A stretch of DNA of 61,831 nucleotides from Candidatus Babelota bacterium (GTDB lineage: Bacteria; Babelota; Babeliae; Babelales; GCA-2401785): positions 1-61,831 of the forward strand of contig JBHPCE010000001.1 of NCBI GenBank assembly GCA_042576345.1. The letters are read 5' to 3'. The notes under the pieces are model-generated. The model searched no databases, had not been told where the DNA came from, and saw only the letters and a list, made by a program, of their open reading frames with translations. The translations under genes and the position numbers were made by a program. This document shows positions 2 through 33,160 of the stretch, piece after piece; within the stretch, counting starts at the first letter, position 1, and each line of letters opens with the position of its first letter.

Positions 2-1384
2 CTCAAAGTTCATGATTTGGTTTTAAGCCGAGATTTGCAAGGCAATTTGATACACGTTCGAATAAAATCGATTAAAAAACACAAAGTAGATTATATTTTT
101 GGAGTTTACACAGAGGGCTCAAGGCAACGCTACATCTCACTTTCACCATCTCAAACTTTGTACGACCCAGTGCGAGACGAGTGGGTTCAGGCTCAACACA
201 TAGACAAAAACACAGTTCTTTTGGATTCAGATGGCAATCATGTTGCCGTGACCAAAGTTGTCGTTCAAAAAGTTCCACAAAGGCATTTGGACAAAAATAT
301 TAGCAGTTGCTTTGCATATCCGTTTGAGCTTGAGCATTCAAATGTATTTTTCATCGTTGCCAGAAACTACAGCAATCCTTCCACTTTTCGATACATCCTA
401 GCCCACAATGGTCTACCCGCGCTTCTGCCCATAGCTGCAACGGCCTCGTTTTCTTTCGGTTCCTCGTTATCTTCATTAACCCTTACTGGAGCGACATTAA
501 GTGTCGGTAAAATTGGTCTTTCGCTGGGAATTGGGCTAACAGGAGTCGGCGTTGCCGTTTGCGTTGGCATCGCTGGCTACAAGGTTTTCAACTACTTTTT
601 CACAAAAAAACCACCAGAATTCATCGAGAGGGCAGGCAAAATTGATTCCTGGGCAAGTGACCCAAGGCCAAAGCGCACAGGAAACGCCATTGCGGCCCTT
701 CGTGACAGCGGCGAGCTTGGCGTGGTTGGAATCCAAAACTCCCAAACTCCGACTGAAAGCCCTCATCCAGCCATAACAGTCTTTGAAAATGACAATCCTT
801 CGGTAGGAATTATCGACTATGCTTTGAACTTGAATGATGAAAATCAAAAGGGAGATAAAGAAAAAGCAAAACAAAAAGATGAAGACAACGAAGTTTGTGC
901 TGCCGCCGGAGGTGGGCCACCGAAAAAGCCAGAAGATGATGACGACAAAGATGAAGAAAAAAAAGATGAGCAATCATCGGATAAAGAAGACAAAAATCAA
1001 GATAAACCAAAACAAGAAAAACCAATAGAAGATCTTGACAAAGAAACTATCATTAAAAAATTATCGGCTCTAGGTGCTGGATCTGTTGAAAAACTTCGAA
1101 GAAACTGGAAAACAATAAATCATTTTTTAAAACATACCAAGAGAGAACTTAAAAGAGCTCTTAAAAACTTTAAAAAACTTAAAAATACACATATAGAAAA
1201 AAGAAGAAATTACAATCGAGATCCCTACAAATACGACAATTTAGGAAAGTTAAAAAACGCAAAATCTCAGGAAGAAATAAACCGAACAATTTCAACACGT
1301 GACAATGAATTGGGCAATCAAATTTCTTTTCAAAATTTTTGTATAACTATAATCATTGCCTTATTGGATCTTAAAAAAGGGTAA
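2..1384 (+). CDS. Hint (Hedgehog/intein-like) domain protein with its 5' end outside the window. It carries a glycine-zipper hydrophobic segment and a charged C-terminal region, and is a candidate polymorphic-toxin-type protein.
   Basis: The frame is open back to base 2 (LKVHDLVLSRD...), so the TTG at 17 is probably not the true start. The block order DLVLSRD..GNL..V.I / EWVQAQHI.KNTVLLDSDGN.V.V / FELEHSNVFFIV....YILAHN matches Hint/bacterial intein-like domains that end in HN. This is followed by GIGLTGVGVAVCVGIAG and a K/E/D-rich tail. Confidence 0.5.
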   Translation, partial: LKVHDLVLSRDLQGNLIHVRIKSIKKHKVDYIFGVYTEGSRQRYISLSPSQTLYDPVRDEWVQAQHIDKNTVLLDSDGNHVAVTKVVVQKVPQRHLDKNISSCFAYPFELEHSNVFFIVARNYSNPSTFRYILAHNGLPALLPIAATASFSFGSSLSSLTLTGATLSVGKIGLSLGIGLTGVGVAVCVGIAGYKVFNYFFTKKPPEFIERAGKIDSWASDPRPKRTGNAIAALRDSGELGVVGIQNSQTPTESPHPAITVFENDNPSVGIIDYALNLNDENQKGDKEKAKQKDEDNEVCAAAGGGPPKKPEDDDDKDEEKKDEQSSDKEDKNQDKPKQEKPIEDLDKETIIKKLSALGAGSVEKLRRNWKTINHFLKHTKRELKRALKNFKKLKNTHIEKRRNYNRDPYKYDNLGKLKNAKSQEEINRTISTRDNELGNQISFQNFCITIIIALLDLKKG

Positions 1385-1389
1385 GTTTT

Positions 1390-1983
1390 ATGGAAATAAA
1401 GATTGACTATTTTGAATACATCTGTAACAGAATTATTTATGAAACTATATCTATGGGGTTTACCTCTATAGACATTAATGAATTTGATTTTTATTGGTGC
1501 ATTGTAGCAAGTGAGGAATATGATGACGATCCTCCCGAAGTTTGTATGGGCTCCTTGCTTGATGAGCGGGAATGGCTCTATTCAGTCTTAGACGATTCTG
1601 AAGACAACATGCCCATTATTTGCCACTACGAATGGCTTAGTCGTGTGATACAGGCTTTAAGTTATTTGGTTTTCAAGGGCAAAAAGCCAAATAAAACAGT
1701 CGATGAAACTATAGAAGTCAAAACAATCTCTCGCATTTTTGACGCCTTGGTTTTGGAGCCCAAAAAGCATGGAATAAGTTTTTTTAATATCGACTTTGAC
1801 CATCACTGGGATATAAAAATTGAAGATTTATTTGACACTTCTAAACAACCTGTACCTGTAAAATGCTCCTTGGGAAAAGATTATAAATGTTTGAAAGACA
1901 TGCTTGAAACAAATCAATTTAAACTTGCAGAGGCTCTGGAATGTTTGGCTCATTTAACAAAGGCAATCGGTTATTATAGCTAA
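1390..1983 (+). CDS. Small cytoplasmic protein, paralog 1 of 3 (candidate immunity protein)
   Basis: The ATG lies 5 nt after the upstream stop. The motif FDFYW...C.GSL.DE.EWL is shared with the next two ORFs. The protein itself looks like two copies of one module: FDFYWCIV...GSLLDEREWL...LSYL and DFDHHWDIKI...CSLGKDYKCL...AIGYY. Confidence 0.7.
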   Translation: MEIKIDYFEYICNRIIYETISMGFTSIDINEFDFYWCIVASEEYDDDPPEVCMGSLLDEREWLYSVLDDSEDNMPIICHYEWLSRVIQALSYLVFKGKKPNKTVDETIEVKTISRIFDALVLEPKKHGISFFNIDFDHHWDIKIEDLFDTSKQPVPVKCSLGKDYKCLKDMLETNQFKLAEALECLAHLTKAIGYYS

Positions 1984-2025
1984 AGGAAATTATCCCTTTT
2001 ATTAAATCAAAAAGGCTTAAGAAAG

Positions 2026-2690
2026 ATGCCACAAACAATATTTATCGCCCTCGAAAAACTAGAACAAGTCGGCTTGCGCATTTTCGAAGATGCTAAACAT
2101 CTATCACCCAAAAATCTTTGTTTAAATTGCATAAGTATCGATTACTGCTGGACCGCTTGTCCGGAAAACAAAAAACCTTCTTCCAAAAACCTGATGCCTG
2201 CATAGGTTCATTAAGCTCAAATTGGGAATGGTTGTCGAAAGTCTTGAATGGTCAAAACAGCTTTTCAGTAACTGATTTTGAAATGCTTGGTAAAATGCTT
2301 TGTGCGTTTGGATATTTTATGCAAACACCTAGTTGTATGAATTCAGAATGTTCATGTGGCGATTCAGAAAAGGTATCTCTAGCCAACCTAAAAAGCTTGT
2401 TCAATATATTCATTGACGCGATGAGTAAAAACAATTTTTATGACCTAGACTGCCAATCTATAGGCATTAATTATTGGGGCTTTAAAACGAACGAAAAGTA
2501 CAACTTCGAAAATAAAGAAACGGCCCCTGAGCCAACTAAATTTATAATCAAAGATACCTGGAACAAATTTCTGTCATTACGTAAGCACAATGCCATTTCG
2601 CTTGGAGATAGGCTTTCAATTTTGGGAGACATAATAAACATTTGCGGTGAAGTTGTATCCAATTCTGAACAACCATGGCTTTTATTTTGA
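2026..2690 (+). pseudogene. Paralog 2 of 3, disrupted by a -1 nt frameshift
   Basis: The ATG at 2026 gives MPQTIFIALEKLEQVGLRIFEDAKHLSPKNLCLNCISIDYCWTACPENKK... and stops at 2203-2205. The rest of the homology (KPDACIGSLSSNWEWLSKVL...) continues in the frame of tracked ORF 2118-2690. One extra base in the A-runs at 2170-2175 or 2184-2188 would join the two frames. Confidence 0.65.
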
Positions 2691-2696
2691 GGAAAT

Positions 2697-3314
2697 TTGT
2701 CAGTGACTCTAAAAATTAGCGAGCTAGAAGCTCTGTCGATATATGGTCTTAAAAATTTAACCAAATTAAAAATTGAGTCATTTGATTTCTCTTCTACAGA
2801 TTTTTATTGGGTAGTTTTTAGAGAAGATATGACTAAAAAGGGTGTAGCCCCTACCAATCTGGGTGTTGGATCTCTGCAGGATGAGTGGGAATGGCTTCAA
2901 GATATTTTTGATGATGAACAAATTGCCGTGACAATGGATTTCAACTACCTGGGGAGCCTTACCAGAACTATAAGCTATCTTATTTCCAATGGTTTGTTCT
3001 CTTCTAAGGCCTCAAATCAACAGTTCAACAAGCCTGTAAGAGTTGCGAAAATTCAAGATCTGTATGAAGCAATTTTTAAGAGTATTTTGGAATGTAGAAT
3101 TGAGGAAGTGGCTGTTGAGCATAATTTTTACTGGGTACTGGATATAGAAGATTCTTATTGTTTTGAAAAGATTCCAAAACCACGACAAAGGAAATTGACG
3201 GATGATATGAAATTCTTACGAGAGCAGATGAAAAACAAAAAAATGGATCACGACACTTTGGCTTTGTTTTTTGAGCGTCTTGGTAGCGTAATTAGGCTTG
3301 CAGATTTTCTTTAG
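2697..3314 (+). CDS. Paralog 3 of 3 (candidate immunity protein)
   Basis: It carries TDFYWVVF...GVGSLQDEWEWLQDIF plus a second module HNFYWVLDIED.... The GTG at 2703 sits 9 nt after GAGGA and may be the real start rather than the TTG at 2697. Confidence 0.7.
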   Translation: MSVTLKISELEALSIYGLKNLTKLKIESFDFSSTDFYWVVFREDMTKKGVAPTNLGVGSLQDEWEWLQDIFDDEQIAVTMDFNYLGSLTRTISYLISNGLFSSKASNQQFNKPVRVAKIQDLYEAIFKSILECRIEEVAVEHNFYWVLDIEDSYCFEKIPKPRQRKLTDDMKFLREQMKNKKMDHDTLALFFERLGSVIRLADFL

Positions 3315-5422: not shown

Positions 5423-7789
5423 ATGGGGGTGATCATGAAGAACGAAGAAAAGGAAAGGGAAAAAGAAGCGATTCCCTGTACTCTTCCAGTAATTCCTACA
5501 GTCGACGTAGTCGTATTTCCACAAATGGTTGTTCCGCTTCTCGTACTCGACGAGAAAATCATTGGCGGAGTTTCAAGAGCGGCCGAAAACGACAAAAATG
5601 TACTGATAGTTGCAACCAAGGATCAGCCTGTTGGCTATGACGGCCCAATTGGCACACAAGATCTATTTAGCGTTGGAACCATCGGAAGGGTCTTGAGAGC
5701 AATGACACTTTCTGACGGGAGCATAAAAGTACTCGTTCAAGGAATCAGCCGAGCAAAAATCAAAAACATCACAACAGAAGGCGATGAACTCCAATCGGAA
5801 GTCGAAGAAGTTATATTTAACGTCTGCGAAGATAGAGAAGAAGAAGTCGAAATTAAAATGCGTGAAATGCTCGCCTATGTAGAACAGGTCGGCGAAAGAG
5901 TCCGCGACTATGGACGTGATTTTCAAGTCGTTATGTCGCAAATTCAAGATCCTGAGAGGCTCGTCGATTTTGTAATCTCTCACATGGGTGTCAGCGTCAA
6001 GCACTCACAAATCTTGCTCGAGAAAAATAATATCTTAGACTTACTGGACGGTGTTTTTGAGTTATTCAGAAATGAAGTTGAGCTCGCATCCGTTCAAGAA
6101 GACGTAAAAGTTACTGCCAGAGACTCCATCGACCGCTCACAGCGCGAGTACTTCCTCAAAGAACAGCTCAGAGCAATCCAAAAAGAGCTTGGTGAGTCGA
6201 GTGATTCAGAAAACGACGATTTAAAAGAAAAATTAAGAACGCTGCCATTGTCTGACGAAGCACGAGAAGAAGCTGAAAGGCAGCTGAGAAGATTGGAACA
6301 CACATCGCAAGACTCTCTTGAAGCCACTGTAATTCGAAACCACCTTGAATGGCTCTTTGGGATGCCATGGGGCGTTAAAACAGAAGATATTTGTGAGATA
6401 AAACATGCACAAACAATCTTGGACGAAGACCACTTTGGGCTTGAAAAAGTTAAAGACCGAATCTTAGATTACCTCTCAGTCCGCATGTTCCAGAACGAAT
6501 ACCACGCACCACTGCTCTGTTTAACCGGCCCTCCAGGGGTCGGTAAAACTTCTTTGGGCAAATCCGTTGCTCGCTGCTTAGGCCGAAAGTTTGTCAGAAT
6601 TTCTCTGGGTGGCGTTCATGATGAATCCGAAATACGAGGACACAGACGAACCTACGTAGGCGCTCTTCCTGGCCGAGTCGTTCAGTCCATGAGAAAAGCT
6701 GGCAGCATGAACCCAGTCTTGATGATCGACGAGGTCGACAAACTTGGTCAGTCAAACCGAGGAGATCCAGCTGCAGCGCTTTTAGAAGTTTTAGATCCAG
6801 AACAAAATTCAACATTTTATGACAACTACCTCGGCGTTCCGTTCGATCTTTCTCACGTCATGTTCATCGCAACTTCCAATGACGCCAGCTCAATCCCACC
6901 CGCTCTTCGTGACAGAATGGAAGTCATCGATCTTTCCGGATATTCCAAGCAGGAAAAAGTTCAAATCGCAACCGGGCACTTGGTAGGAAAAGCAATCAAA
7001 AACGCCGGGCTTGAAGAAAAAGGTATTGAATTTTCCGATGAACTTATTGGCGACATCATATCCAGCTATACGCGAGAGGCTGGGGTAAGAGAACTCGAAC
7101 GCTTCATCAGAAGAATATGCGCAAAATTTGCCAGATCCCTGGTTGAAAAAGGTGAAAAAGTAACGTTTACACACGACAACCTTCAACAATATCTTGGGCC
7201 AAGACGAATCCGGTGCGAAAAGGGCACTGGTGAGCGTAAGATTGGCGTTTGCAACGGCCTTGCATGGACACCATATGGAGGACAGGTTCTTCAAGTAGAA
7301 GCCGTTTTAATGCCCGGGCACGGAAAGCTTATTTTGACTGGACAACTTGGTGATGTAATGAAGGAATCAGCTCAAGCTGCCTTGAGCTACATCAGATCAC
7401 ACGCTGACAGATTTAAAATTGACGTCAACGCTTTTGAAGATTTCGACTTACACATACACCTACCTGCAGGTGCAATTCCAAAAGACGGGCCCTCTGCGGG
7501 CATCACACTCCTAGCATCTGTTCTGTCTGTCTTCACAAAAAGACCGCTGGACGGAACCTTTGCGATGACCGGCGAAGTTGATCTTCAAGGCACAATGCTT
7601 CCAATCGGCGGCCTTAAAGAGAAAGTTCTAGCAGCCAAGCAATATGGCGTCAAAACCGTGATTTTGCCAAAAGAAAATGAATGCGACGCGCAAGATGCCC
7701 TTAAATACGCCGAAGGCTTGGACCTGATGTTTGTCGAAAACGTTGAACAAGCATTGGACCGAATACTGCTTCCAGTTGAGAAATTTTAA
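5423..7789 (+). CDS. lon: ATP-dependent Lon protease (LonA), copy 1
   Basis: It has a LonA N-domain, Walker A GPPGVGKTS, Walker B VLMIDEVDK, the catalytic serine motif PKDGPSAGIT and a downstream GGLKEKVLAAK. An alternative start is the ATG at 5435, preceded by GGGGGTG. Confidence 0.95.
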   Translation: MGVIMKNEEKEREKEAIPCTLPVIPTVDVVVFPQMVVPLLVLDEKIIGGVSRAAENDKNVLIVATKDQPVGYDGPIGTQDLFSVGTIGRVLRAMTLSDGSIKVLVQGISRAKIKNITTEGDELQSEVEEVIFNVCEDREEEVEIKMREMLAYVEQVGERVRDYGRDFQVVMSQIQDPERLVDFVISHMGVSVKHSQILLEKNNILDLLDGVFELFRNEVELASVQEDVKVTARDSIDRSQREYFLKEQLRAIQKELGESSDSENDDLKEKLRTLPLSDEAREEAERQLRRLEHTSQDSLEATVIRNHLEWLFGMPWGVKTEDICEIKHAQTILDEDHFGLEKVKDRILDYLSVRMFQNEYHAPLLCLTGPPGVGKTSLGKSVARCLGRKFVRISLGGVHDESEIRGHRRTYVGALPGRVVQSMRKAGSMNPVLMIDEVDKLGQSNRGDPAAALLEVLDPEQNSTFYDNYLGVPFDLSHVMFIATSNDASSIPPALRDRMEVIDLSGYSKQEKVQIATGHLVGKAIKNAGLEEKGIEFSDELIGDIISSYTREAGVRELERFIRRICAKFARSLVEKGEKVTFTHDNLQQYLGPRRIRCEKGTGERKIGVCNGLAWTPYGGQVLQVEAVLMPGHGKLILTGQLGDVMKESAQAALSYIRSHADRFKIDVNAFEDFDLHIHLPAGAIPKDGPSAGITLLASVLSVFTKRPLDGTFAMTGEVDLQGTMLPIGGLKEKVLAAKQYGVKTVILPKENECDAQDALKYAEGLDLMFVENVEQALDRILLPVEKF

Positions 7790-7803
7790 AAAATAACTTC
7801 GTT

Positions 7804-7824
7804 TGGGCGGCCACGTGCCGCCCA
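7804..7824 (+). terminator. GC-rich hairpin downstream of lon
   Basis: The sequence is tGGGCGGC-cacgt-GCCGCCCa. No clear T-tract follows. Confidence 0.45.
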
Positions 7825-7875
7825 GCTCTCATTTTATAGCAATAAACCTATAGTATGCTTCAGATTTCTCTTTAA

Positions 7876-8045
7876 TGTCATCCCAGACTCGATCTGGGAT
7901 CTAGTCCCTTTTTTTGCCAAAAAATAATTTGGTTCGTGAAATTTGATCAAAGCGCCTTGAGCTGAAAAACCCCTATTCAAGCACCATTCAGCATAAAGCA
8001 TTCTGGATTAAGCGGTCTAGATCCCAGATCAAGTCTGGGATGACA
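7876..8045 (+). mobile_element. MITE copy 1 (nested-palindromic, roughly 170 bp)
   Basis: The termini tgtcatcccagactcgatctgggatctag ... ctagatcccagatcaagtctgggatgaca are inverted repeats of each other. Each terminus is also itself a hairpin (atcccaga/tctgggat). Boundaries are uncertain by about 12 bp. Confidence 0.85.
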
Positions 8046-8372: not shown

Positions 8373-9680
8373 ATGATGAAGAAAAATATATTGATAGTTC
8401 TTGCCATGGCGTTGTTTGCGGGCGGCGTGAGTTTTAGTGCTCATGCGAGTGACAACGTAGATCCTATGGTTAAAGCACTACAGGACGCTGGTTTTGGAAA
8501 GGGTGAATTAGAGGATTGGCAAAACTGTGATATAACAAGCTTAACTCATCTTAATTTATTCGAAGGAAAATCTTTTCACGAATATGCACAAACTGCCCAA
8601 GAAGCCGCAACCGTAGCTAAGAAACTGCAAGCCAAAGGAATTTCCAGTATGAGCCTTGACACAATTGTATCAATCGTTCATGGCAGAGATAGTCTTGATG
8701 CCGCAATAGAAAGACTCGCGAGCAAAAAAGAAAAAGAAGAAGAAGAAGAAGAGTACGATGATCTAAGCGATGACCATGGCGAAGGCCGCGGTGGTGACGA
8801 AGACGCTGTCGGCGGCGGTGATGGCTATGAAGGCGGCGGTGAAGGAGGCGGTGAAGGCGCTGTCGGTGAAGGCGGCGGTAAAGAAGACGACGATGCTGAC
8901 GACGGCCCCACAACCCCAAGATCTTCCTCACCAGACCAAGGCGTAGAAGGCGGCTACGAAGAAGGCGATGACTACGACGAAGAAGGCGGCGGCGGTGAAG
9001 GCTACGAGGAAGGTGGCTACGAGGAAGAAGGCTACGAAGAAGGCGGCAGAGATAACAACGTCGTATCTTGCCCAAACTGTGTTCATATGAACAATCCTGG
9101 ATCTACTGAATGCGCAAAATGCTTTAGCCCGCTTAGTAAACCAAACTACAATCTTTGCAGAAATTGTAAGCGATTTAGCAATTGCCAAGAAACTACATGT
9201 CCATTTTGTAATGGAACTCTAGATAAATATAATCCTCCAAAAGATTCCGGCGAACATCACGATGATGGCGACGATGACAAAACTGGATGGTTATGTACAA
9301 GCTGTTTTAAAATGAACACTATTCAAGCCAATGAATGCGCATACTGCCACCAACATATTAATCTAGGGTCCCAGGACAATGATTCCGACAAAGACTCTGG
9401 TCATTACTCAACCCTCACGCAACTGTTCTGGGCAGGAAAATATAATCTTGGAGCTGTAACAACAATTTCTGGCTCAGCAGCACTTGCTCTTTACATCGCT
9501 GCAAAAGTAGCTAAACACAGAGGCTGCAGCGCAAAAGTTGTAAAAACCTTGAAACAGCTTGCGATAGCTGGGGGCACATTGGGTGCTGGCGCATTTGTTT
9601 GGAACGGTGGAAGCATGTTGTTTGATAATCTATCGTCAGCTTGTGATAAAGACGAAAAAGCTCCAACTCCAATCAAATAA
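8373..9680 (+). CDS. Secreted acidic G/E/D-rich protein with RanBP2-type zinc fingers and a C-terminal hydrophobic hairpin
   Basis: The signal peptide reads MMKKNILIVLAMALFAGGVSFSAHA. CPNCVHMNNPGSTECAKC and WLCTSCFKMNTIQANECAYC fit (W)xCx2Cx3Nx6Cx2C. A third Cys4/5 ribbon is CRNCKRFSNCQETTCPFC. The RBS GAGAGG lies upstream. Confidence 0.8.
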   Translation: MMKKNILIVLAMALFAGGVSFSAHASDNVDPMVKALQDAGFGKGELEDWQNCDITSLTHLNLFEGKSFHEYAQTAQEAATVAKKLQAKGISSMSLDTIVSIVHGRDSLDAAIERLASKKEKEEEEEEYDDLSDDHGEGRGGDEDAVGGGDGYEGGGEGGGEGAVGEGGGKEDDDADDGPTTPRSSSPDQGVEGGYEEGDDYDEEGGGGEGYEEGGYEEEGYEEGGRDNNVVSCPNCVHMNNPGSTECAKCFSPLSKPNYNLCRNCKRFSNCQETTCPFCNGTLDKYNPPKDSGEHHDDGDDDKTGWLCTSCFKMNTIQANECAYCHQHINLGSQDNDSDKDSGHYSTLTQLFWAGKYNLGAVTTISGSAALALYIAAKVAKHRGCSAKVVKTLKQLAIAGGTLGAGAFVWNGGSMLFDNLSSACDKDEKAPTPIK

Positions 9681-18202: not shown

Positions 18203-20605
18203 TCACTTCTTTTTTGAAGAACTCTTTTTCGTTGCCACCTTTTTCTTTGAAAAGGGTGATTTTACCAAAGTTTCTTTTAAAACCTCGTCCATAGTTTTGA
18301 CATAAACAATTTTGATGTCGCCACCAAGCTCTTTTTCGAATTCCTTGATGTCATTTTTGTTTTCCTCTGGAACTATCACTGTTTCAAATCCCAGGCGTCT
18401 TGCAGCCAAAAGCTTTTCTCTTAAACCGCCCACAGGAAGCACTCTTCCGCGCAATGTAACTTCTCCAGTCATTGCAATTTTGTCTTTTACTGCAATTTTG
18501 GTCAAAACAGAAGCTATCGCCGCACCAATTGTTATACCAGCAGAAGGACCGTCTTTTGGAATTGCGCCTTCTGGAATATGAATGTGAATATCCGAGCCAG
18601 AATAAAAATCAGTTTTTACACCTAGTTCTTTTGCTATGGCCCTTATGTAACTGAGCGCAGCCTGGGCCGACTCGTGCATAACCTCTCCAAGCTGTCCTGT
18701 GACAGTTAACTCGCCCTTACCCTTGAAAAATGTAACTTCCACTTCTAAAACGTCGCCGCCAACCTCTGTCCAAGCAAGTCCAGTTGCAACGCCACAGACG
18801 CCTTTTGTGAAAGTATGATGTGCTTTAAAATGAGGAGCTCCAAGCCATTCTTCCAATTTTTTTTCTGTGATGACAACTTTCTTGGGAGGCTTTTCTCCAA
18901 TTAAAAGCTGAATTGCTTTTCTGTAAAGCTTTGCGATCAGTCTTTCCAACTGACGCACTCCAGCCTCTTTTGTGTACTCTTTGATAACTTTTTTGACAAT
19001 GGCATCAGAACATTGAACTTGAGCAGGTTTTAAATCGTATTGCTTCAAAAGTTTTGACATCAGATGCTTTGTTGCAATTTCTAACTTTTCCTCCTGTGTG
19101 TAGCCAGAAAGATAAACAATCTCCATCCTATCAAAAAGAGGAGCCGGAATGTGATCCATAACATTTGCGGTTGTTACAAAAAGAACCTTAGAAAGGTCAT
19201 ATTCAACTTCTACAAAGTGATCCACAAAGCCTTTATTTTGCTCGGGATCCAAAACTTCCAACAATGCCGATGCGGGGTCTCCCCTCATGTCCGAAGACAT
19301 CTTGTCCACTTCGTCAAGCAAAATAAGCGGATTGATAACTTTTGCTTTTTTCATTGCCTGGACAATTTTGCCAGGCATTGCACCTATGTAAGTTCTTCTA
19401 TGGCCGCGTATTTCCGCCTCATCTCTAACACCACCAAGTGAGATCCTGACGAACTTTCTACCCATCGCCTTGGCAATAGATGCGGCCAAAGAGGTTTTTC
19501 CAACACCAGGAGGGCCAACAAGGCAAATTATTGGCGCACGTTCAAGCTTTTCTCCAGCAAACTTTTTGGCCGCCAAAAACTCAATAATCCTTTCCTTGGC
19601 CTTCTTCATGCCAGAATGAGTGGAATCTAAAATTTCTTCTGCCTCAGCCAAGCCAACCTTGTCTTTTGTCTGCTTGTACCACGGCACAGAGGTCAGCCAG
19701 TCAACAAAATTGCGACTCACAGCCGCTTCCGGCGATGATGCAGGCATTTGCTCCAACCTTCGGCATTCCGAAAGTACTTTTTCCTTAGCCTCTTCTGGCA
19801 ACTTTAATTTTTTAACCTTTTTCCGCAAACTCTCTATTTCCTGAGTGATATCTTCTCGCCCAAGCTCACGCTGTATTGCCCGGATTTGCTCGTTGAGATA
19901 ATAATCGCGCTGATGTTTTTCGATCTGACTTTGAACTCTTTTGCGCACACTCTTTTCGGCCTTAAAAACCTCTATTTCGTTCTGAATTAAGGCACATAGA
20001 TGTATTGCTCTTTCTTTAACATCAAGCATTTCCAATAGATTTTGTTTTTCCTTAAAATCCATCTGAACATGAACAGCAACCGAATCGACCAGCGTTTCAA
20101 GATCACTTACAGATTTCAGCGGTGTTAAAGCATCCGGAGAAATTCTATCGTTGTAGGACACATATTCTTTGAATGACAGGAAAATGCGCCTTGAAAGGGC
20201 CTTACGCTCTGTAGCACTCTCCACACCAATAGACTCAACGTCTTGTACAACAGCGTCCAGATAATCTTCTGCATCACCCGGTTCTATGACCCGCGCGCGC
20301 CTAATTCCCTCGACCAAGAGCTTCATTGTGCCGTCTGCATCCTTTTTCATCTGCAAAATCACAGCACGAGTTCCATACTCATAAACATCAGAAACTTTGG
20401 GTCTGACAACCTCACTCAATTTTTGAGACGTCAAAAAGACAGCCCTATCACTCTTGAGCGCCTCTTCAACGGCTCTCACAGAGATATCGCGGCCCACTCG
20501 GACCGGCAAAATCCCCTTTGGGAGCGCCACAACGTTTTTTAGAGGCAAAATGGGAAGAAGCCTTCCCTGAAAAACTTGATCTTTTTTTTCTGCATCTTTA
20601 GGCAT
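18203..20605 (-). CDS. lon: ATP-dependent Lon protease (LonA), copy 2
   Basis: It carries GPPGVGKTS, LILLDEVDK, PKDGPSAGIT and GGLREKLLAARR. The RBS AAGGAA lies upstream. The C-terminal tail is K-rich. Confidence 0.95.
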   Translation of the reverse strand: MPKDAEKKDQVFQGRLLPILPLKNVVALPKGILPVRVGRDISVRAVEEALKSDRAVFLTSQKLSEVVRPKVSDVYEYGTRAVILQMKKDADGTMKLLVEGIRRARVIEPGDAEDYLDAVVQDVESIGVESATERKALSRRIFLSFKEYVSYNDRISPDALTPLKSVSDLETLVDSVAVHVQMDFKEKQNLLEMLDVKERAIHLCALIQNEIEVFKAEKSVRKRVQSQIEKHQRDYYLNEQIRAIQRELGREDITQEIESLRKKVKKLKLPEEAKEKVLSECRRLEQMPASSPEAAVSRNFVDWLTSVPWYKQTKDKVGLAEAEEILDSTHSGMKKAKERIIEFLAAKKFAGEKLERAPIICLVGPPGVGKTSLAASIAKAMGRKFVRISLGGVRDEAEIRGHRRTYIGAMPGKIVQAMKKAKVINPLILLDEVDKMSSDMRGDPASALLEVLDPEQNKGFVDHFVEVEYDLSKVLFVTTANVMDHIPAPLFDRMEIVYLSGYTQEEKLEIATKHLMSKLLKQYDLKPAQVQCSDAIVKKVIKEYTKEAGVRQLERLIAKLYRKAIQLLIGEKPPKKVVITEKKLEEWLGAPHFKAHHTFTKGVCGVATGLAWTEVGGDVLEVEVTFFKGKGELTVTGQLGEVMHESAQAALSYIRAIAKELGVKTDFYSGSDIHIHIPEGAIPKDGPSAGITIGAAIASVLTKIAVKDKIAMTGEVTLRGRVLPVGGLREKLLAARRLGFETVIVPEENKNDIKEFEKELGGDIKIVYVKTMDEVLKETLVKSPFSKKKVATKKSSSKKK

Positions 20606-21033: not shown

Positions 21034-22437
21034 ATGAACAATTATGGCCAAGAGAATGTAAGTCAAACTTCAAAACAAGGTTGGTTTAAGCATATTTGGC
21101 CATTCACAGGCGTTGAAAGCCAAAGAACCTTTTACTTCTCAGTTATCTTTTCATGTATCATTTTCTCTTATTCGATAATAAAACCACTCAAAGACACCAT
21201 TTTCATAGGCTTTATAGGCCCATCTTATCTTCCTTGGGCCAAACTTTTGATGCTGGCATCTCTGCCAATCTTCATGCCCCTTTATTCAGCCGCTGACAAC
21301 AAAGAAAAAAGAAATCGTGCGATAATGATTTTTAGTACATTCTACGGCCTAGTTTGCCTTATATTCGCCGTACTTTTCCTGAGTCCAACGATGGGCATTG
21401 CAAACACAGCAACCGGCCCAGGCAGAATTCTTGGATGGATTTTTTATGCAATAATGGATTTTTTCTCGATAGCAGTTGTTGCAACTTTTTGGGCCATGAT
21501 CAACTCTATCAGCACCCCAAACACGGCTAAAAAACAATATGGTATAATGGTTGCAGCCTCTAGAGGTCTTGGTGCGATAGCTGCCGGCCTTGGAACCGTC
21601 CTTACCTGGATAGGCATAAAAGACACAACATCTATCCCAACTATGATTGCTCTTGCCGGCATAAGCCTTGTTTTATGTACATTTTTAGCACACAAGATGT
21701 TTAAAAAGATCCCTCAAGATCACTTAAAAGGATACTCCGACGAACACGAAAAAGATAAAAGCAAATCATCAGTACCGAAAAACGCCTGGTCAAACCTAAA
21801 GACCCTTGTCACAAGGCCATATACATTTGGAATGTTCTGGCTTTTGTGTAGTTTTGAATTAATTTCTGCTTTGATGAACTACAGGATGCAATGCCTCATT
21901 GCACAATCTGCCAAAACAATCGGTGGAATCGGCAAGTTCATGTTTGCCTACACCTTTATTTTCCAAATTTTGGGACTTCTACTGGCTCTTTTTGGAACGA
22001 CAAAACTTCTCAAAAATTTTGGAGTCAGGTTCAGCCTTTTACTAACCCCGCTTATTGTTCTTTTACTCTCGTTCAGCCTAGTTTTCCTTAACAATTTGGC
22101 TGTGATAACAACATTAATGATATCGCTCAGAACACTTAACTACAGCCTTGATGTACCTGTTAAAGAAATATTATTTATCCCAACAACCCACAACATTCAA
22201 TATCAGGTTAAAGGCTGGATCGCATCTTTTGGAAAAACAATCTCAAAAACCACCGGTTCTTTGTTTAACGGCATAGCCGCAACTGCTTCTGCAAGAATTT
22301 TCTTGCGGACAGTAACGTATGCGCCCATTGTTTTAAGTTTTTTCTGGATTTTAACCGCCTTCATCGTTGGCAAAACATACAAAAAAGCTATAGATGCAGG
22401 AGCTGTGATCGGAGAAGACGACGTATCCACGGAGTGA
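21034..22437 (+). CDS. Tlc/NTT-family nucleotide transporter (ATP/ADP translocase-like), copy 1
   Basis: It is a polytopic protein of 467 aa. The N-terminal SIIKPLKDTIF corresponds to the LRSIKDGF box of Rickettsia Tlc. FWAMINSISTPNTAKKQYG corresponds to FWQFANQIT..EAKRFY. The C-terminal IP....KG.I..FGK...K..G box is also present. Confidence 0.65.
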   Translation: MNNYGQENVSQTSKQGWFKHIWPFTGVESQRTFYFSVIFSCIIFSYSIIKPLKDTIFIGFIGPSYLPWAKLLMLASLPIFMPLYSAADNKEKRNRAIMIFSTFYGLVCLIFAVLFLSPTMGIANTATGPGRILGWIFYAIMDFFSIAVVATFWAMINSISTPNTAKKQYGIMVAASRGLGAIAAGLGTVLTWIGIKDTTSIPTMIALAGISLVLCTFLAHKMFKKIPQDHLKGYSDEHEKDKSKSSVPKNAWSNLKTLVTRPYTFGMFWLLCSFELISALMNYRMQCLIAQSAKTIGGIGKFMFAYTFIFQILGLLLALFGTTKLLKNFGVRFSLLLTPLIVLLLSFSLVFLNNLAVITTLMISLRTLNYSLDVPVKEILFIPTTHNIQYQVKGWIASFGKTISKTTGSLFNGIAATASARIFLRTVTYAPIVLSFFWILTAFIVGKTYKKAIDAGAVIGEDDVSTE

Positions 22438-22515: not shown

Positions 22516-23898
22516 ATGATAATCAAGAGGATAACTGAGCTCATAAAAAAACTAAGATCTTTAGACAAAGAAACTGCTAAAAAAATAATTTATCTCTCAT
22601 CAATTTATGCCCTTCTGATCTTCACATATTCCACCATCAGGCCAATTAAAGACGCCATATTCCTGGCAATGGTCGGAGCAAAGTTCCAACCAATTGCAAA
22701 ACTTGCAGTGATGGCCTTTTCGCCATTTTTTATAATTTTCTACTCAGCCATTGTCACAAGGATGAACCGAAAAAGGGCTTCTATGTCGCTCATAGGCGGA
22801 TATGCTGCCGCCTGCATCGCCCTTTCCTTAGCGTGCCTTCACCCTGTCCTTGGTATTTTGAACACTATAACGTCGCCATTCAGAATTTTAGGTTGGACAG
22901 CATACGCACTATTTGACATGTATCCTTTGGCCGTTATGACTTGTTTTTGGGCCCTTACAAGCTCAATCAGCACGCCAGACAAAGCCAGCACCCAATACGG
23001 CATAATGTCTGCCACATCAAGATTGGGCGGAATAATTGCATCAGGTTTTGGTTACATCGTAATGAAAAGTTCAATGCCAGTATATGCCACAATACCCGCA
23101 CTTACAGCGCTTTCTGGAACAATGCTTTTTGCAACCACTCTTCTGATCAAATCTATGTTCAAAAACATAAACAAAGAAAATCTAAAAGGTTACACTGATC
23201 AGAAAGCTGGATCGCCAACCAAAAGAAAAAAACCCGGTCTCTTAGAAGGTCTCAAGGCTGTTGTCAGAGAACCTTACGCATTCGGGATATTCACAATATT
23301 TTGTTCTTACGAGCTTATTTCAGCACTGGCAACGTTTAGAACTCAATGTTTGATCACGGCCCAGACGGCTCATTCAATGCAAAAAATAGGTTCCTACGTT
23401 TTTGGATACACTTTTATTTTCCAATCAATCGGCTTTTTCATAGCTCTTTTTGGAACAACCACTTTGCCAAAAAAACTTGGTATGAAAATCAGCCTTCTCA
23501 TAACACCAGCAATATTATTTATCTTTTCAGCAGCTCTTATCGGCAACCTAAATTTATACTCTTTGACCGCAATGATGATCGCCATGAAGGCCTTAAATTA
23601 CGGTTTTAACATACCGGTACGTGAAATGCTCTTCATCCCAACAAGCCGAAACATCCAGTTTATGGCAAAGGGCTGGATCGACTCATTCGGAAAAACCTTC
23701 AGTAAAGCCACAGGATCTGTAATGAACTTGGCTTCGACAATGCCACACCTATCTTCCCTTTCCGTAATGCTCGCGCCCATATCTCTAGCAATCAGCGCAG
23801 TCTGGGGCATCATCGCAATGGCTCTTGGAAACAAGTTCCAAAATGCGGTCAAAAAATCAGAGGTTATAGGACAAAAACAGCCAAAAAAGACACATTGA
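22516..23898 (+). CDS. Tlc/NTT-family nucleotide transporter, copy 2
   Basis: It is a paralog of the preceding gene (STIRPIKDAIF, FWALTSSISTPDKASTQYG, FIPTSRNIQFMAKGWIDSFGKTFSKATGS). Confidence 0.65.
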   Translation: MIIKRITELIKKLRSLDKETAKKIIYLSSIYALLIFTYSTIRPIKDAIFLAMVGAKFQPIAKLAVMAFSPFFIIFYSAIVTRMNRKRASMSLIGGYAAACIALSLACLHPVLGILNTITSPFRILGWTAYALFDMYPLAVMTCFWALTSSISTPDKASTQYGIMSATSRLGGIIASGFGYIVMKSSMPVYATIPALTALSGTMLFATTLLIKSMFKNINKENLKGYTDQKAGSPTKRKKPGLLEGLKAVVREPYAFGIFTIFCSYELISALATFRTQCLITAQTAHSMQKIGSYVFGYTFIFQSIGFFIALFGTTTLPKKLGMKISLLITPAILFIFSAALIGNLNLYSLTAMMIAMKALNYGFNIPVREMLFIPTSRNIQFMAKGWIDSFGKTFSKATGSVMNLASTMPHLSSLSVMLAPISLAISAVWGIIAMALGNKFQNAVKKSEVIGQKQPKKTH

Positions 23899-25188: not shown

Positions 25189-25908
25189 GTGGTTGACATG
25201 AAGATGAAAAATATATTTATGGGCATTATTGCGATATTCCTTTCACAAAACATAATCAAAACAACAGAACCATCCCCCTTGACAGTACTTAAAGAGGATG
25301 GAATAAATTTACAGGAAGCGGAAGACATAAGTTCTCGTTTAAATTTGCAACAAAAAATAGATGCGACCAAACAAATCATTAAATCTAGGAGTTCGGCTAC
25401 TGTTACATTTAAACTTAACGGAAAGTTTTACTTCTTTACGCCATTTACAAAAAAATGGTACGTAATTGGATCGTCAAAAGAAACTTCCGAACTTAATGAT
25501 GATGATCTAAAAGAAATCTCTGAGAAAGAATTGCAAAAACTCATACCACCAACAATTATTGGATCGCCAAAAGAAATTTCCGAACTTAATTTCGAAAACG
25601 TTACCTTAGGCTCACTAAAATCACCCTACGCTCTCCTTACAGCCTCGGGAATTTTAATCCCTGTGGGAACGTTAATCTACTACATTATAAAATCAAAAAA
25701 TAAAGGCATGGGCGATAAAATTAAACAAGCGTTCAGAAAATTGTTAAGAAACAAGATTCTGCTTGCATCTTCACTGACACTTTTGACTGTAGGAATCGGC
25801 TCCAAGTGCCTCAACAGAGTGTTCGAAAGTGAAGGGCCATGTAAAACATTTGTTGATTTCATGAACAAGCCATTGGAAGGCTGGAAGAAGTCTGGCGATG
25901 ACGACTAA
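25189..25908 (+). CDS. Secreted/membrane protein, family member A, with a shared C-terminal hairpin module
   Basis: It has a signal peptide and an internal repeat (GSSKETSELN / GSPKEISELN). The C-terminal module ENVTLGSLKSPYALLTASGILIPVGTLIYYIIKSKNKGMGDKIKQ... is shared with 26244-27020. The ATG at 25198 may be the true start. Confidence 0.65.
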   Translation: MVDMKMKNIFMGIIAIFLSQNIIKTTEPSPLTVLKEDGINLQEAEDISSRLNLQQKIDATKQIIKSRSSATVTFKLNGKFYFFTPFTKKWYVIGSSKETSELNDDDLKEISEKELQKLIPPTIIGSPKEISELNFENVTLGSLKSPYALLTASGILIPVGTLIYYIIKSKNKGMGDKIKQAFRKLLRNKILLASSLTLLTVGIGSKCLNRVFESEGPCKTFVDFMNKPLEGWKKSGDDD

Positions 25909-27020
25909 TCAAAGAATCTTTTTAGTTTTGGCCTTTGGCGCTTTTACGTTGGGATTGAGGGCGACTGACGAAACACAAAGCCTCATAGAACAAATAAAAC
26001 GTTGCCAAGACTTCACGAAAACCGAAGGAAAAAGTACTGAAAAGATTTTTAAAAGTATGAATCCGGGCCAAAAGGTTACGTTGGAAGGCGATCTTACCAT
26101 TTACAGAATCAGTGTTGGTGGAAAACCTAAATATGCCCTTAAAGCAAACTATGATGAAAGCGATTTCGCCCTATATGATAATTTAGATGATTTAAGAAAA
26201 ATATTCACAGAAAGTAACTTTCCAAGTATAAAATCTCAAATACATGTACAACACGATAACTCCCCCCCCCCCAAAAATTGGATTTAACATTACTGTTGAC
26301 GGAATAGATTTTTCATGCCAGGGAAACCAAAAACGTGAATGGGATGTTTTTGAAAATGAAGTTAAAAGAAAGCCAACCTATAAAGAACTTTTACTCATAA
26401 CAGAAAAATGCATTTCCTTATCCAAAGCTCATAAATATTACAGAATATTCACTCCAAAACTTCCAATATCCTTTCACGGAAATCCTTTCGTTCATCTCGG
26501 GTTTAAGCCGCCAAAGCCAAAGCCAAAGCCAAAGCCAAAGCAAGAGCCAGCAGATGACGATACTGATAAGGCGCCTCTAGAAAACGTTACCTTAGGCTCA
26601 CTAAAATCACCCTACGCTCTCCTTACAGCCTCGGGAATTTTAATCCCTGTGGGAACGTTAATCTACTACATTATAAAATCAAAAAATAAAGGCATGGGCG
26701 ATAAAATTAAACAAGCCCTCGGCAAACTTGTCAAAAACAAAATTGCACTCCTATCCTCACTCACACTTTTGACCGTAGGAATCGGTTCAAAATGCCTCAA
26801 TGGAGTGTTTTCAGATGAAGGACTATGCAATACCGTTTTTGATTTCATGAACACACCTCTGGGAAGCTCAAAGAAGTCTGAGGTAGGTAGACTCGAAGAA
26901 TTTGAAGATTTATACCCAGAAATTACCACTGGCCCCATTGGTGGTGGCTTACATGACGATAGTGATAACTCACGTCTTCTTCACGGTGAAGAAAATACAG
27001 AGTACGCTGATCAAAGTTGA
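25898..27020 (+). pseudogene. Family member B, split into two ORFs (25898-26287 and 26244-27020) by a C11 homopolymer. It is either a phase-variable gene in the OFF state or a homopolymer sequencing error.
   Basis: The first ORF has a signal peptide (MTTNQRIFLVLAFGAFTLGLRA) and ends ...HDNSPPPKNWI*. The second reads ...TPPPPKIGFNITVDG... and lacks its own signal peptide or RBS. A run of C10 or C13 would fuse them in frame. Confidence 0.6.
26262..26272 (+). repeat. Homopolymeric C11 tract
   Basis: Counted directly: t26261, then 11 C, then aaaaa. Confidence 0.95.
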
Positions 27021-31705: not shown

Positions 31706-33160
31706 ATGAACAGAAGCGTAACGCGCTTGCTCGCAGCCGCGCTCTTAGTCAGTACTGCGGCTATCGCGGGATCGAAGACGGAAACAAACCGTCCCTTTAT
31801 AAACACAAAGGACTTCAGAAACAGAGTGGAATCATTAACAATATTCCACAAAGCTCTGGCTTACGAGTCAGACAAGTTAATCGGCGGCAATGTACAAGTT
31901 GTGCCATTTTATCTTCAACAAAAAGATTCATCACGAGATGAACTTGGTAAGGGTTTCGGTGTAGACCACCTACAAAACATTATATTCGATGATGCAACGG
32001 GAATTGCTGCCGCACCCTCTACCAATGGCTACGTGGATGCTGGTTATCTAATTCACGAGGAAGACAGCTCCACAGACGGTACTGCATACAGCAAACTAGA
32101 AATAAAACCGAGACACAAAGCATATGGTGTAAACGTCGACTACTGCCACAAACTAGACGAACTTGCAGATGGACTGTGGTTCAGAGTTTGCACAGGTCTT
32201 GTAAAAGTAGAACATTTACTTGGCCTTACATGGGCTTCAGAAGCACAGGTTGACACAACACACCCATATGTTTCTCAATACCTTGATGGCTCCACAGAAA
32301 CTACCGACGCTGCCGACTTAACTAAACTACTAACACACGGCAAGATGGATGGTGAAACTAGAGATGAGTCGGGTTTCAACGACGTTGAAGCAATGATTGG
32401 CTGGAACTTCGTTGAAAAAGACAATGCAAAAATGGCTCTTTCAGTCGGAATTGTAATTCCAACAGGTAACGAGCCAACAGCAGAATATCGTTTTGAACCT
32501 CTGTACGGCACACGCCACTTCCAATTTGGCGTTGGTCTTACAGGTTGTGGCACACTGTGGGAAAAAGACGAAAACAAATTTAAAGCTGTTTTCGATGCCC
32601 ACTACAGGTATGCATTTGAGCGTGAAGTAAAACGTTTGGTTGGTATTAAAGACACCGATTATGGCTTTTACTATCTCCTACAACAAACAGGCGCTGCAGC
32701 TGCGACAAAACTTATTCCTGCTGCCAACTTGCTGGCAATGGATCTTAAGGTAACACCTGGAAGCTCCTTTGATGGTACAGCAATGCTAACCTTCTGCTCC
32801 AAGTGGTTTGTAGTTGATGCTGGTTACAACTTTTATGGTTGCCAATCACAAAAACCAACCATAAAAGACTGGACAGACGACACCTACTACAAAGTAGATA
32901 AGGCGTACGATACAAGTGCAACATGGGCAACAAACGCCTCAGCACTTCAAGGTACAGCAATTAACAAAACCAATCTCGACAAAGACATCGACAGCCAGAT
33001 GATCCACAAAGTCTTTGCTGCGGCAGGCGTTGTAACCACCGAATGGGATTATCCTGTAACATTCGGAATTGGTGGTTCAATAGAGTTTGTCCAAGGAGCT
33101 AAGAAGCAAATTACACCTGCCAACTACGAAGTATTTGGCAAAGTTGGAATTTCCTTCTAG
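31706..33160 (+). CDS. Putative outer-membrane beta-barrel protein (porin-like), paralog 1
   Basis: The signal peptide reads MNRSVTRLLAAALLVSTAAIAG. The sequence is rich in aromatic/Gly alternation. It ends in a C-terminal Phe (FGKVGISF). Confidence 0.6.
   Translation: MNRSVTRLLAAALLVSTAAIAGSKTETNRPFINTKDFRNRVESLTIFHKALAYESDKLIGGNVQVVPFYLQQKDSSRDELGKGFGVDHLQNIIFDDATGIAAAPSTNGYVDAGYLIHEEDSSTDGTAYSKLEIKPRHKAYGVNVDYCHKLDELADGLWFRVCTGLVKVEHLLGLTWASEAQVDTTHPYVSQYLDGSTETTDAADLTKLLTHGKMDGETRDESGFNDVEAMIGWNFVEKDNAKMALSVGIVIPTGNEPTAEYRFEPLYGTRHFQFGVGLTGCGTLWEKDENKFKAVFDAHYRYAFEREVKRLVGIKDTDYGFYYLLQQTGAAAATKLIPAANLLAMDLKVTPGSSFDGTAMLTFCSKWFVVDAGYNFYGCQSQKPTIKDWTDDTYYKVDKAYDTSATWATNASALQGTAINKTNLDKDIDSQMIHKVFAAAGVVTTEWDYPVTFGIGGSIEFVQGAKKQITPANYEVFGKVGISF

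Follow-up and report, generated by a model that had tools for sequence, protein, structure and literature searches.

Does the first locus on contig JBHPCE010000001.1 encode a polymorphic toxin together with the immunity proteins that protect against it? The contig belongs to a Candidatus Dependentiae metagenome-assembled genome (MAG), and its entire length of 61,831 bp is the window analyzed here. Within nt 2-3314 an open reading frame (ORF), which we call ORF A, is followed by three paralogous genes on the same strand, the second of which is broken. Database records list ORF A (460 aa) and paralogs 1 and 3 as the hypothetical proteins ACFLY6_00005, ACFLY6_00010, and ACFLY6_00025. A first-pass annotation had recognized a Hint domain, a variable C terminus, and an array of small genes, and had proposed from this layout a polymorphic toxin/immunity locus. 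ORF A, the YILAHN motif that ends the Hint domain, the hydrophobic stretch behind it, and the paralogs all lie where that annotation had placed them, and the proposal is supported by a constant region that carries alternative tips, by the portability of the C-terminal (CT) domain of ORF A, and by the pairing of this domain with genes of the paralog family. On these comparisons of sequence, the Dependentiae bacterium probably carries here a locus of the polymorphic toxin-immunity type.

The C-terminal domain of ORF A and the gene behind it

The reading frame of ORF A runs without a stop from nt 2 to a TAA codon at nt 1382-1384, with its N terminus cut off by the end of the contig. Among 5.8 billion proteins its only relatives are P0002, P0003, and P0004 from Babeliales MAGs, which match it with 51-55% identity (E ~1e-80) at a query coverage of 57-58%, confined to the first ~262 residues. 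After residue ~262 these proteins diverge from ORF A into a C terminus with a CPEC...CxxC pattern, and the gene downstream of the Hint relatives with this Cys-rich tip encodes a TPR protein, not a member of the paralog family. A more distant protein of 375 aa, encoded at locus L007, has the same order of parts (signal-peptide-like leader, Hint domain, hydrophobic segment, linker, and variable C terminus); it combines this window-like architecture with a CT of the window type, and a paralog-family gene follows. The gene order thus varies in the manner of polymorphic toxin loci, with two C termini on one constant region, each accompanied by its own downstream gene, and with the CT also found on unrelated carriers. 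The GC content changes at the same place: it is 0.44-0.50 across the constant region of ORF A, 0.28-0.40 from nt ~800-900 to 3300, and back to 0.45 in the convergent ABC ATPase gene 3′ of the paralog array. This drop of 10-17 points coincides with the end of homology to the Hint relatives that carry the other tip, which fits a swapped C-terminal cassette. A GTDB genome scan with the ORF A family returned a single locus that was already known, and a metagenome scan with the family alignment returned none. Matches of ORF A to CDC45, FlhF, and Tom22 were rejected as low-complexity artefacts.

Behind the hydrophobic stretch, the first-pass annotation had described one charged region of roughly 270 aa and of no recognizable family. 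The absence of a family was borne out, but the region is not a single one: it consists of a linker, a low-complexity spacer, and a basic domain of ~95 residues (Table 1). This last domain, the CT, has an isoelectric point (pI) of 10.4 and a net charge of +15, and it resembles the C terminus of the L007 protein and a short ORF at locus L004. A hidden Markov model (HMM) built from these three C termini matched five further loci (L010, L014, L016, L017, and L018; E 1e-19 to 1e-26), all from the set retrieved by a DNA pattern for the paralog family; over L004, L007, L010, L014, L016, L017, and L018 its E values range from 1e-19 to 1e-41. Of the eight CTs that were aligned, the one in the window stands furthest from the rest (27-35% identity), and it retains all positions at which the other seven agree. 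H397, K400, P408, D412, and R433 (ORF A numbering) are invariant in all eight. Because the CT is very basic and has invariant His, Lys, Asp, and Arg residues, it may act on nucleic acid or another anionic target.

The proteins that carry the CT are otherwise unrelated. It forms the end of an 861-aa protein at L017 and of a 545-aa protein at L014, both without a Hint match, and it occurs as short CT-only ORFs at L010, L018, and L004. At L016 it is an orphan ORF between Rhs genes, next to an Rhs protein that ends in Tox-WTIP, and this ORF begins with EDPNGYW, a remnant of the Rhs junction. Hydrophobic segments comparable to that of ORF A precede the CT at L016 and L017. A search with tblastn also found a degraded copy with an in-frame stop (L019) on the Cronobacter condimenti plasmid pCCO1, in an island that holds MafI-family immunity and Tlde1 genes as well, and behind this copy lies a divergent paralog-family gene (HMM E 6.8e-12). 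This distribution shows the CT to be a portable domain of a recurrent and as yet unnamed family, and a putative toxin tip. In agreement with the first-pass annotation, which could name no family for it, Pfam gave no match for the CTs of the window, L004, L007, L014, L016, and L017, NCBIfam gave none for those of the window, L007, L014, and L016, and a profile search of the PDB with the CT gave nothing better than E 0.085. A tblastn search of the CT against phages found nothing. A match of the L007 protein to SidA_fam (E 2.8e-4; 19.9 bits, cut-off 60) was rejected as sub-threshold and not reproduced with the other CTs.

Inside the spacer that precedes the CT in ORF A there is a GGGPP motif (aa 303-307, nt 908-922). 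A GGP[PG]-[DE]-rich motif stands 50-90 residues before the CT on the otherwise unrelated carriers of the window, L007, L017, L004, and L019. Cassette junctions are marked by VENN in CdiA and by DPxGx in Rhs, and by analogy the GGP-type motif may be the recombination junction mark of this cassette.

The CT and the paralog family are strictly adjacent. Behind each of the nine CTs a paralog-family gene begins within a few nucleotides, and a CT lies directly upstream in 8 of the 13 paralog-family loci with readable upstream sequence. The layout of the window is mirrored at L017, where the putative toxin gene is followed by three paralog-family genes. The downstream genes of the two tips are also connected with each other, as P0020, P0027, and P0028 are fusions of the paralog family with the TPR module that is found behind the other tip (36% identity between that module and the C-terminal part of the fusions; E 7e-42 and 9e-33).

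Several loci show further arrangements of these downstream genes. The TPR gene consists of one ~200-aa module at L001 (9228-9869); at L002 (1804-3771) three segments of one 655-aa protein each match this module, a multiplication that mirrors the duplication in the window paralogs described below. On the 2-kb contig L013, a single-module gene of the paralog family stands in a tight same-strand array with two other pairs of small paralogous ORFs, which looks like a heterogeneous polyimmunity locus; a WapI-like immunity match of one neighbor (E 0.009) was too weak to use. At L005 the family gene P0156 is flanked by related ORFs of ~205-225 aa (7279-7950 and 8929-9543) that read as multi-pass membrane proteins, on an ankyrin-rich contig without a CT.

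The paralogs and their family

Paralog 1 has its ATG at nt 1390, 5 nt after the ORF A stop codon as first described, and because of this position it is most likely the cognate immunity gene. Its net charge of -17 at a pI of 4.6 is complementary to the +15 and pI 10.4 of the CT. The first-pass annotation had read three paralogs in head-to-tail order. Their relationship stands, with pairwise BLASTP E values of 1e-7 to 1e-17 at 19-24% identity, but only paralogs 1 and 3 are intact and matched from end to end by the family HMM. In paralog 2 the N-terminal part, which contains an IDYCW motif, lies in frame 1 (2026-2205) and the remainder in frame 0 (2118-2690). The shift falls within a stretch that is open in both frames (~2160-2202), and we placed it in an A-run at 2183-2187. 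Once repaired, the protein matches the full family HMM with 158.7 bits, compared with 140.5 bits for the frame-0 part alone, and the public annotation contains only a fragment of 152 aa (P0007). Paralog 2 thus appears to be either a pseudogene or the product of an assembly error. No further copy of the paralogs was found anywhere in the window.

Each paralog had also been suspected of containing two copies of a ~90-aa module, and comparison of the halves confirms this. When the N-terminal halves of a 35-member family alignment were compared with the C-terminal halves in hhalign, they matched with a probability of 99.8% (E 3e-29), and single-module relatives of ~95 aa match either half of the two-module proteins. 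An AlphaFold2 (AF2) model of paralog 1 (predicted local distance difference test score (pLDDT) 69.7, predicted TM-score 0.70) shows an α-β-β-α-α arrangement twice. An exhaustive profile search found 396 representatives of the family (clusters at 50% identity) at E <= 0.001. Among the best 150 members, 83 have a single module (<=140 aa), 57 have two (180-250 aa), and three have a C-terminal TPR region. The family consensus reads ..DYYW.., then ~15-20 residues, ..GSLxDDWxxLxKvL.., and DFERLGN. The window paralogs are acidic (pI 4.6-5.5), and, as read from the sequences, the family lacks a leader peptide. The solitary genes at L008, L009, L011, L012, and L015 form a single-module sub-type, DYERFASILRAISETI, with no CT upstream. 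At L008 and L011 the gene of the DYERFASILRAISETI sub-type adjoins small paired genes whose translations resemble PIN-type toxin-antitoxin (TA) pairs.

The small ORFs do not match a housekeeping family; they belong to the unnamed family of 396 clusters, and the earlier impression that they resemble nothing with a name persisted through each database. In Pfam, no family was matched by more than 2 of 34 paralog-family members, and never an Imm family; DUF7071, matched below its cut-off by 1 of the 34, was rejected. Profile searches of NCBIfam and the PDB gave no match for the family, and a Foldseek search of the PDB with the model of paralog 1 gave nothing at E <= 0.001. Exact-sequence look-ups of paralogs 1 and 3 returned nothing, a word-indexed search returned only paralog 3 itself when queried with that protein and only five proteins with the 35-member alignment, and tblastn of a single-module family protein against plasmids and phages returned nothing. 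The degenerate DNA pattern for the family retrieved 11 metagenome loci and no viral contigs, and recovered none of the loci collected before. As far as the supplement of Nachmias et al (bioRxiv 10.1101/2021.10.19.465003) was accessible, neither the CT nor the paralog family has a motif match among its pairs of polymorphic toxins (PTs) and immunity proteins (PIMs). Complexes solved for PT1 and PT7 are absent from our PDB search results for the two families, which could be identical with one of PT2-PT6, PT8, or PT9. Overall, the CT/paralog pair occurs in Dependentiae/Babeliales MAGs, in one Gammaproteobacterium (the Cronobacter plasmid), and on metagenomic contigs that include the Rhs locus.

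The Hint domain and a possible route of release

The N-terminal part of ORF A is related to Hint domains, as first described, and ends in YILAHN at aa 131-136 (nt 392-409). Pfam and NCBIfam scans of the truncated ORF A itself gave no Hint match, and the assignment therefore rests on its full-length homologs, in which Hint profile searches did find Hint-family signals. These homologs are ~500 aa long and have a signal-peptide-like start that leads directly into the β-rich Hint domain, with only this apparent signal peptide, and no trafficking or repeat domain, on the N-terminal side. Compared with them, ORF A lacks ~47 N-terminal residues, comprising the predicted signal peptide and ~21 residues of the Hint domain. 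Signal-peptide-like leaders can be read in P0002, P0003, and the L007 and L017 proteins, and the window copy begins after this point.

That this region is a Hint domain is supported by four agreeing lines. First, PT-HINT (PF07591) is the best or only Pfam match in P0002, P0003, P0004, and the L007 homolog, at sub-threshold scores (E 1.3e-5 to 0.027). Second, the NCBIfam model for the intein C-terminal region, TIGR01443, passes its cut-off of 15.6 bits in the L007 homolog with a score of 22.7 bits; it was not detected in the window ORF A, which has an insertion before ILAHN. Third, a family profile made from four sequences of the domain matches PDB entries 6Y75 and 6TMM (E 0.003), which are structures of the intein-like domain BIL2 (PMC8616854). 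Fourth, in a Foldseek search of the PDB with an AF2 model of P0002, a homolog with 55% identity, the top matches are almost all BIL2, the Clostridium thermocellum bacterial intein-like (BIL) domain, mini-inteins, and Hedgehog HhC (best E 2.7e-5, probability 1.00, target TM-score ~0.5 over ~124 columns). We used this model for the Hint question only, where its matches are consistent with each other.

The terminal His-Asn of ..ILAHN (aa 132-136) is invariant in all five family members, and the residue that follows it is Gly in ORF A and P0002-P0004 and Met in the L007 protein. Cleavage by Asn cyclization is known from inteins and BIL domains, and in BIL domains a terminal His-Asn followed by a non-nucleophile favors cleavage over splicing. 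We rejected a protein-splicing intein for ORF A, which has no Cys, Ser, or Thr at position +1; no splicing would be expected because the +1 Gly is non-nucleophilic. Candidates for position 1 of the Hint domain are Ser (P0002 and P0003) or Cys (L007) beside the predicted signal-peptide cleavage site, with the register of block A uncertain.

The hydrophobic stretch that had been noted after YILAHN is present as well. It is ~58-60 aa long and has a strong transmembrane-like core at aa ~170-192 and a weaker stretch at aa ~138-160, with a Kyte-Doolittle peak of 2.1 at aa 182 in a 19-residue window, and its glycine-zipper-like part, GIGLTGVGVAVCVGIAG, spans aa 176-192 (nt 527-577). A scan for promoters and terminators found no more sites than expected by chance.

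From this arrangement we infer a mechanism that would comprise cleavage, toxicity, neutralization, a target, and a route of delivery. In this process, ORF A would be a small pro-toxin exported through Sec. Its signal peptide would be followed by the Hint domain, which then forms the mature N terminus, by the Gly-rich hydrophobic segment and the linker, and finally by an exchangeable cassette that consists of the GGGPP/acidic spacer and the ~95-aa basic CT. Because the His-Asn is kept, the block-B His is lost, and the +1 Gly is non-nucleophilic, the Hint domain is predicted, by analogy with inteins, to cut only once, without splicing, through cyclization of Asn136. The cut between N136 and G137 would release the hydrophobic segment together with the CT, the segment could aid membrane insertion or translocation, and the CT would act in the cytoplasm of the target cell. 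Immunity would come from the paralogs, acidic proteins without a leader, through binding and neutralization of the CT, with paralog 1 as the cognate partner and paralog 3 and the frameshifted paralog 2 forming a small homogeneous polyimmunity array.

Several points weigh against a polymorphic toxin at this locus. In the Hint domain, the PT-HINT scores of the homologs (18.3, 18.3, 15.2, and 25.9 bits) are all under the gathering score of 27.7 bits, the P0002 model is poor (mean pLDDT 34, and 50-58 in the β region), and the Thr-x-x-His of block B is absent, with all members having [ST]-P-x-Q and the Gln aligning with the His of BIL2. In the hydrophobic segment, a Lys/Arg cluster can be read after the strong core, and by the positive-inside rule this suggests that the CT could remain on the cytoplasmic side of the producer; no export or delivery machinery is evident for ORF A. 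For the CT, the label "toxin" derives from context because no catalytic fold or database relative was recognized, and the Lys/Glu-rich composition accounts in part for the low GC content of nt 900-1400. The paralog family may have other roles, since 5 of the 13 loci are solitary genes beside housekeeping genes. Finally, the habitat of Dependentiae is probably the interior of protist cells, and they may seldom meet competitors there.

The protist host could itself be the target. In that case the Hint-released segment would insert into a protist membrane and expose the charged C terminus to the host cytosol, and the paralogs would be chaperones or regulators that prevent its action inside the bacterium. 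The tandem TLC ATP/ADP translocases on the contig, a mark of intracellular energy parasitism, would suit such an effector, as would the ankyrin, TPR, and leucine-rich-repeat genes in which related loci are rich, the two lobes of the ~58-aa hydrophobic stretch, and the weak SidA_fam match of the L007 protein. That match is, however, far below its cut-off and was not seen with other CTs, and the CT and its partner gene recur together both as an orphan cassette of an Rhs locus and within an immunity island on a plasmid of an enterobacterium, surroundings characteristic of conflict between bacteria. In intracellular pathogens whose toxins are directed at the host, immunity genes are mostly absent, and adjacent immunity genes in amoeba symbionts have been read as a sign of bacterial conflict (PMC3482391). 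We therefore consider a host-directed effector unlikely.

The CT and the paralog family might also be an intracellular two-gene module, such as a TA addiction or partner-switch pair, that has become attached to various carriers, with the Hint-hydrophobic part of ORF A serving as a membrane anchor. A toxin in TA modules, however, is not the C-terminal tip of a signal-peptide-bearing or Rhs protein, and both the exchange of tips on one constant region and the polyimmunity fusions are properties of polymorphic toxins. The Rhs and plasmid-island surroundings of the CT also speak against such a module. The short CT-only ORFs and single-module genes without an obvious carrier at L010, L018, and L004 would fit a free-standing pair, but these ORFs have no clear start codons and look like orphan cassettes, and the one at L016 keeps a remnant of the Rhs junction. 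Even with the solitary family genes near PIN-type TA-like pairs at L008 and L011, as read from translations, and a predicted topology that may leave the CT in the cytoplasm of the producer, such a module seems very improbable. Least probable of all is a decaying or inactive remnant that has the layout of a toxin system and has lost the function, for although paralog 2 is frameshifted, the block-B His is lost, the window CT is the most divergent of the eight (27-35% identity), and degraded copies exist elsewhere (L019), ORF A is open over all 460 captured codons, its CT keeps all residues identical in the other seven, the HN and the hydrophobic segment are conserved, paralogs 1 and 3 match the family HMM from end to end, the block-B Gln is invariant and hence a trait of the family, and in a MAG a frameshift within a run of A may have arisen during assembly.

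A polymorphic toxin locus is thus the reading we prefer. A bolder version of it, which we regard as rather doubtful, would see in the CT and the DYYW/GSLxDDW module the founders of two new folds, one for a toxin and one for an immunity protein, and would credit them with a novel activity. In Dependentiae, the N-terminal Hint domain of the Sec-exported protein would then cut itself off and so launch the membrane-inserting segment, with the toxin attached, into co-infecting bacteria or host organelles inside the protist. This would be a previously undescribed form of delivery, by a minimal toxin that launches itself without a dedicated secretion or injection apparatus.

The remainder of the contig contains several other pairs of paralogs. 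Tandem paralogs with 43% identity lie at 21034-22437 and 22516-23898 (+); a Pfam scan, limited to the first of them, assigned it to the TLC ATP/ADP transporter family. Transporters of this family are a hallmark of energy parasitism, and the tandem fits the intracellular lifestyle of Dependentiae. Full-length paralogs of ~790-800 aa with 42% identity are found at 5423-7789 (+) and 18203-20605 (-), which from their sequences we take to be Lon proteases. Tandem paralogs with 41% identity occupy 52196-53731 and 53775-55472 (-), the first of which, the only one scanned, is HtrA-like with Trypsin_2 and PDZ matches, and tandem paralogs of ~485 aa with 42% identity occupy 31706-33160 and 33676-35148 (+), where the first, again the only one scanned, has no Pfam match. 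The neighboring ORFs at 25189-25908 and 26244-27020 (+) have no Pfam match and share a C-terminal block of 101 aa with 82% identity; the surrounding 24-27 kb stretch has a GC content of 0.35-0.39, compared with ~0.40-0.45 around it, and may be another recombining cassette. Lastly, a 435-aa protein without a Pfam match is encoded at 8373-9680 (+). As read from the sequence, it begins with a leader-like N terminus and ends in a hydrophobic C terminus rich in Gly and Ala, with a long stretch of low complexity dominated by Gly, Glu, and Asp and three CxxC...CxxC zinc-ribbon-like motifs in between, and it may be another secreted or membrane effector.

Table 1 Positions of the parts of ORF A and of the three paralogs in the window.
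Feature	Position (nt)	Strand	Basis
Hint domain of ORF A, C-terminal ~136 residues	2..409	+	51-55% identity to P0002-P0004 and Hint signals in relatives
SLSPSQT, block-B position, Gln replacing His	137-157	+	ORF A Hint domain
FELEHSNVFF	323-352	+	ORF A Hint domain
Predicted autoproteolytic site Asn136/Gly137	407..412	+	HN invariant in five family members, then G or M
Gly/Ala/Ser-rich hydrophobic region, aa 137-195	410..586	+	Kyte-Doolittle; conserved in P0002-P0004 and L007
Linker, aa 196-262, last piece of the constant region, homology ending near ITVFEN	587..787	+	Alignment with Babeliales homologs
Acidic/Lys-rich low-complexity spacer, aa 263 to ~365, start of the variable cassette	788..1096	+	Composition; GC 0.28-0.37
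CT domain, aa 366-460 plus stop, predicted toxin	1097..1384	+	CT HMM, alignment of eight CTs
Paralog 1, 197 aa, pI 4.6, two-module	1390..1983	+	ATG 5 nt after ORF A stop; family HMM
Paralog 2, 1-nt frameshift, 221 aa once repaired	2026..2690	+	Frame split, family HMM
Paralog 3, 203 aa from GTG 2703 (TTG 2697 also possible), two-module	2703..3314	+	Family HMM

Comparison with known systems

In Sec-exported polymorphic toxins, a HINT domain stands just before the toxin and acts as a releasing peptidase (Zhang et al 2012, PMC3482391). The ORF A family resembles these Sec/type II secretion system toxins with PT-HINT in its apparent signal peptide, its Hint domain N-terminal to a variable C-terminal domain that is the predicted toxin, the leaderless putative immunity gene immediately downstream, the swapping of tips on a constant region, and the recurrence of PT-HINT as the Pfam match. 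In contrast to them, its PT-HINT scores are sub-threshold and its block-B His is replaced by Gln, the Hint domain lies at the mature N terminus and is not preceded by any adhesion, repeat, or filament domain, and the gap between Hint domain and predicted toxin consists of a hydrophobic segment of ~60 aa and a linker/spacer of ~170 aa. The predicted toxin and immunity domains also belong to unnamed families. The closest relatives of the N-terminal domain of ORF A are the BIL domains, including Tetrahymena BIL2 (6Y75/6TMM) and the C. thermocellum BIL (2LWY). Like them it has a terminal His-Asn followed by a non-nucleophile, but the ORF A family has no N-extein beyond the predicted signal peptide, has SPxQ in place of the block-B TxxH, and has an uncertain residue 1.

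The small basic tip with a small acidic partner immediately downstream recalls CdiA-CT/CdiI and the colicin nucleases with their immunity proteins, although no sequence or structure relationship to these was detected and ORF A has no TPS/FHA, receptor-binding, or translocation domains. Orphan cassettes of Rhs/YD-repeat loci are similar in that a window-type CT and a single-module relative of the paralogs occur together in the Rhs locus L016, and in both Rhs proteins and ORF A a hydrophobic helix follows the cleavage or junction motif. Unlike Rhs proteins, ORF A has neither RHS repeats nor a shell, and the predicted means of release is Asn cyclization in the Hint domain, in place of the aspartyl autoprotease of Rhs proteins.

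Among the features described for polymorphic toxin systems are proteins that combine different immunity modules and tandem series of distantly related paralogs from one immunity family (PMC3482391). The window paralogs, as tandem, same-strand, closely spaced, and distant relatives (19-24% identity), resemble homogeneous polyimmunity loci such as SUKH arrays, and the fusions of the paralog family with TPR resemble polyimmunity proteins in joining what would be two different immunity modules (PMC3482391). They differ from SUKH arrays in that the window has only three copies, directly behind the putative toxin gene, each internally duplicated and matching no named Imm family. Within the collection of papers that was searched, none mentions both Dependentiae and polymorphic toxins. 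The type of system is already well known, and the locus extends its catalogue and overturns nothing. The apparently new elements are a pair of domain families without names, the duplicated form of the putative immunity module, a compact layout in which the Hint domain comes first and a hydrophobic segment stands between it and the predicted toxin, and the presence of such a locus in Dependentiae. A putative toxin tip, which is basic, and a putative immunity module, which is acidic, each of ~95 aa, are thereby defined as a testable cognate pair, and the very compact Hint-based architecture could serve as a model for C-terminal cleavage. Polymorphic toxin loci with immunity arrays in an intracellular candidate phylum would suggest that bacterial conflict takes place inside protist hosts.

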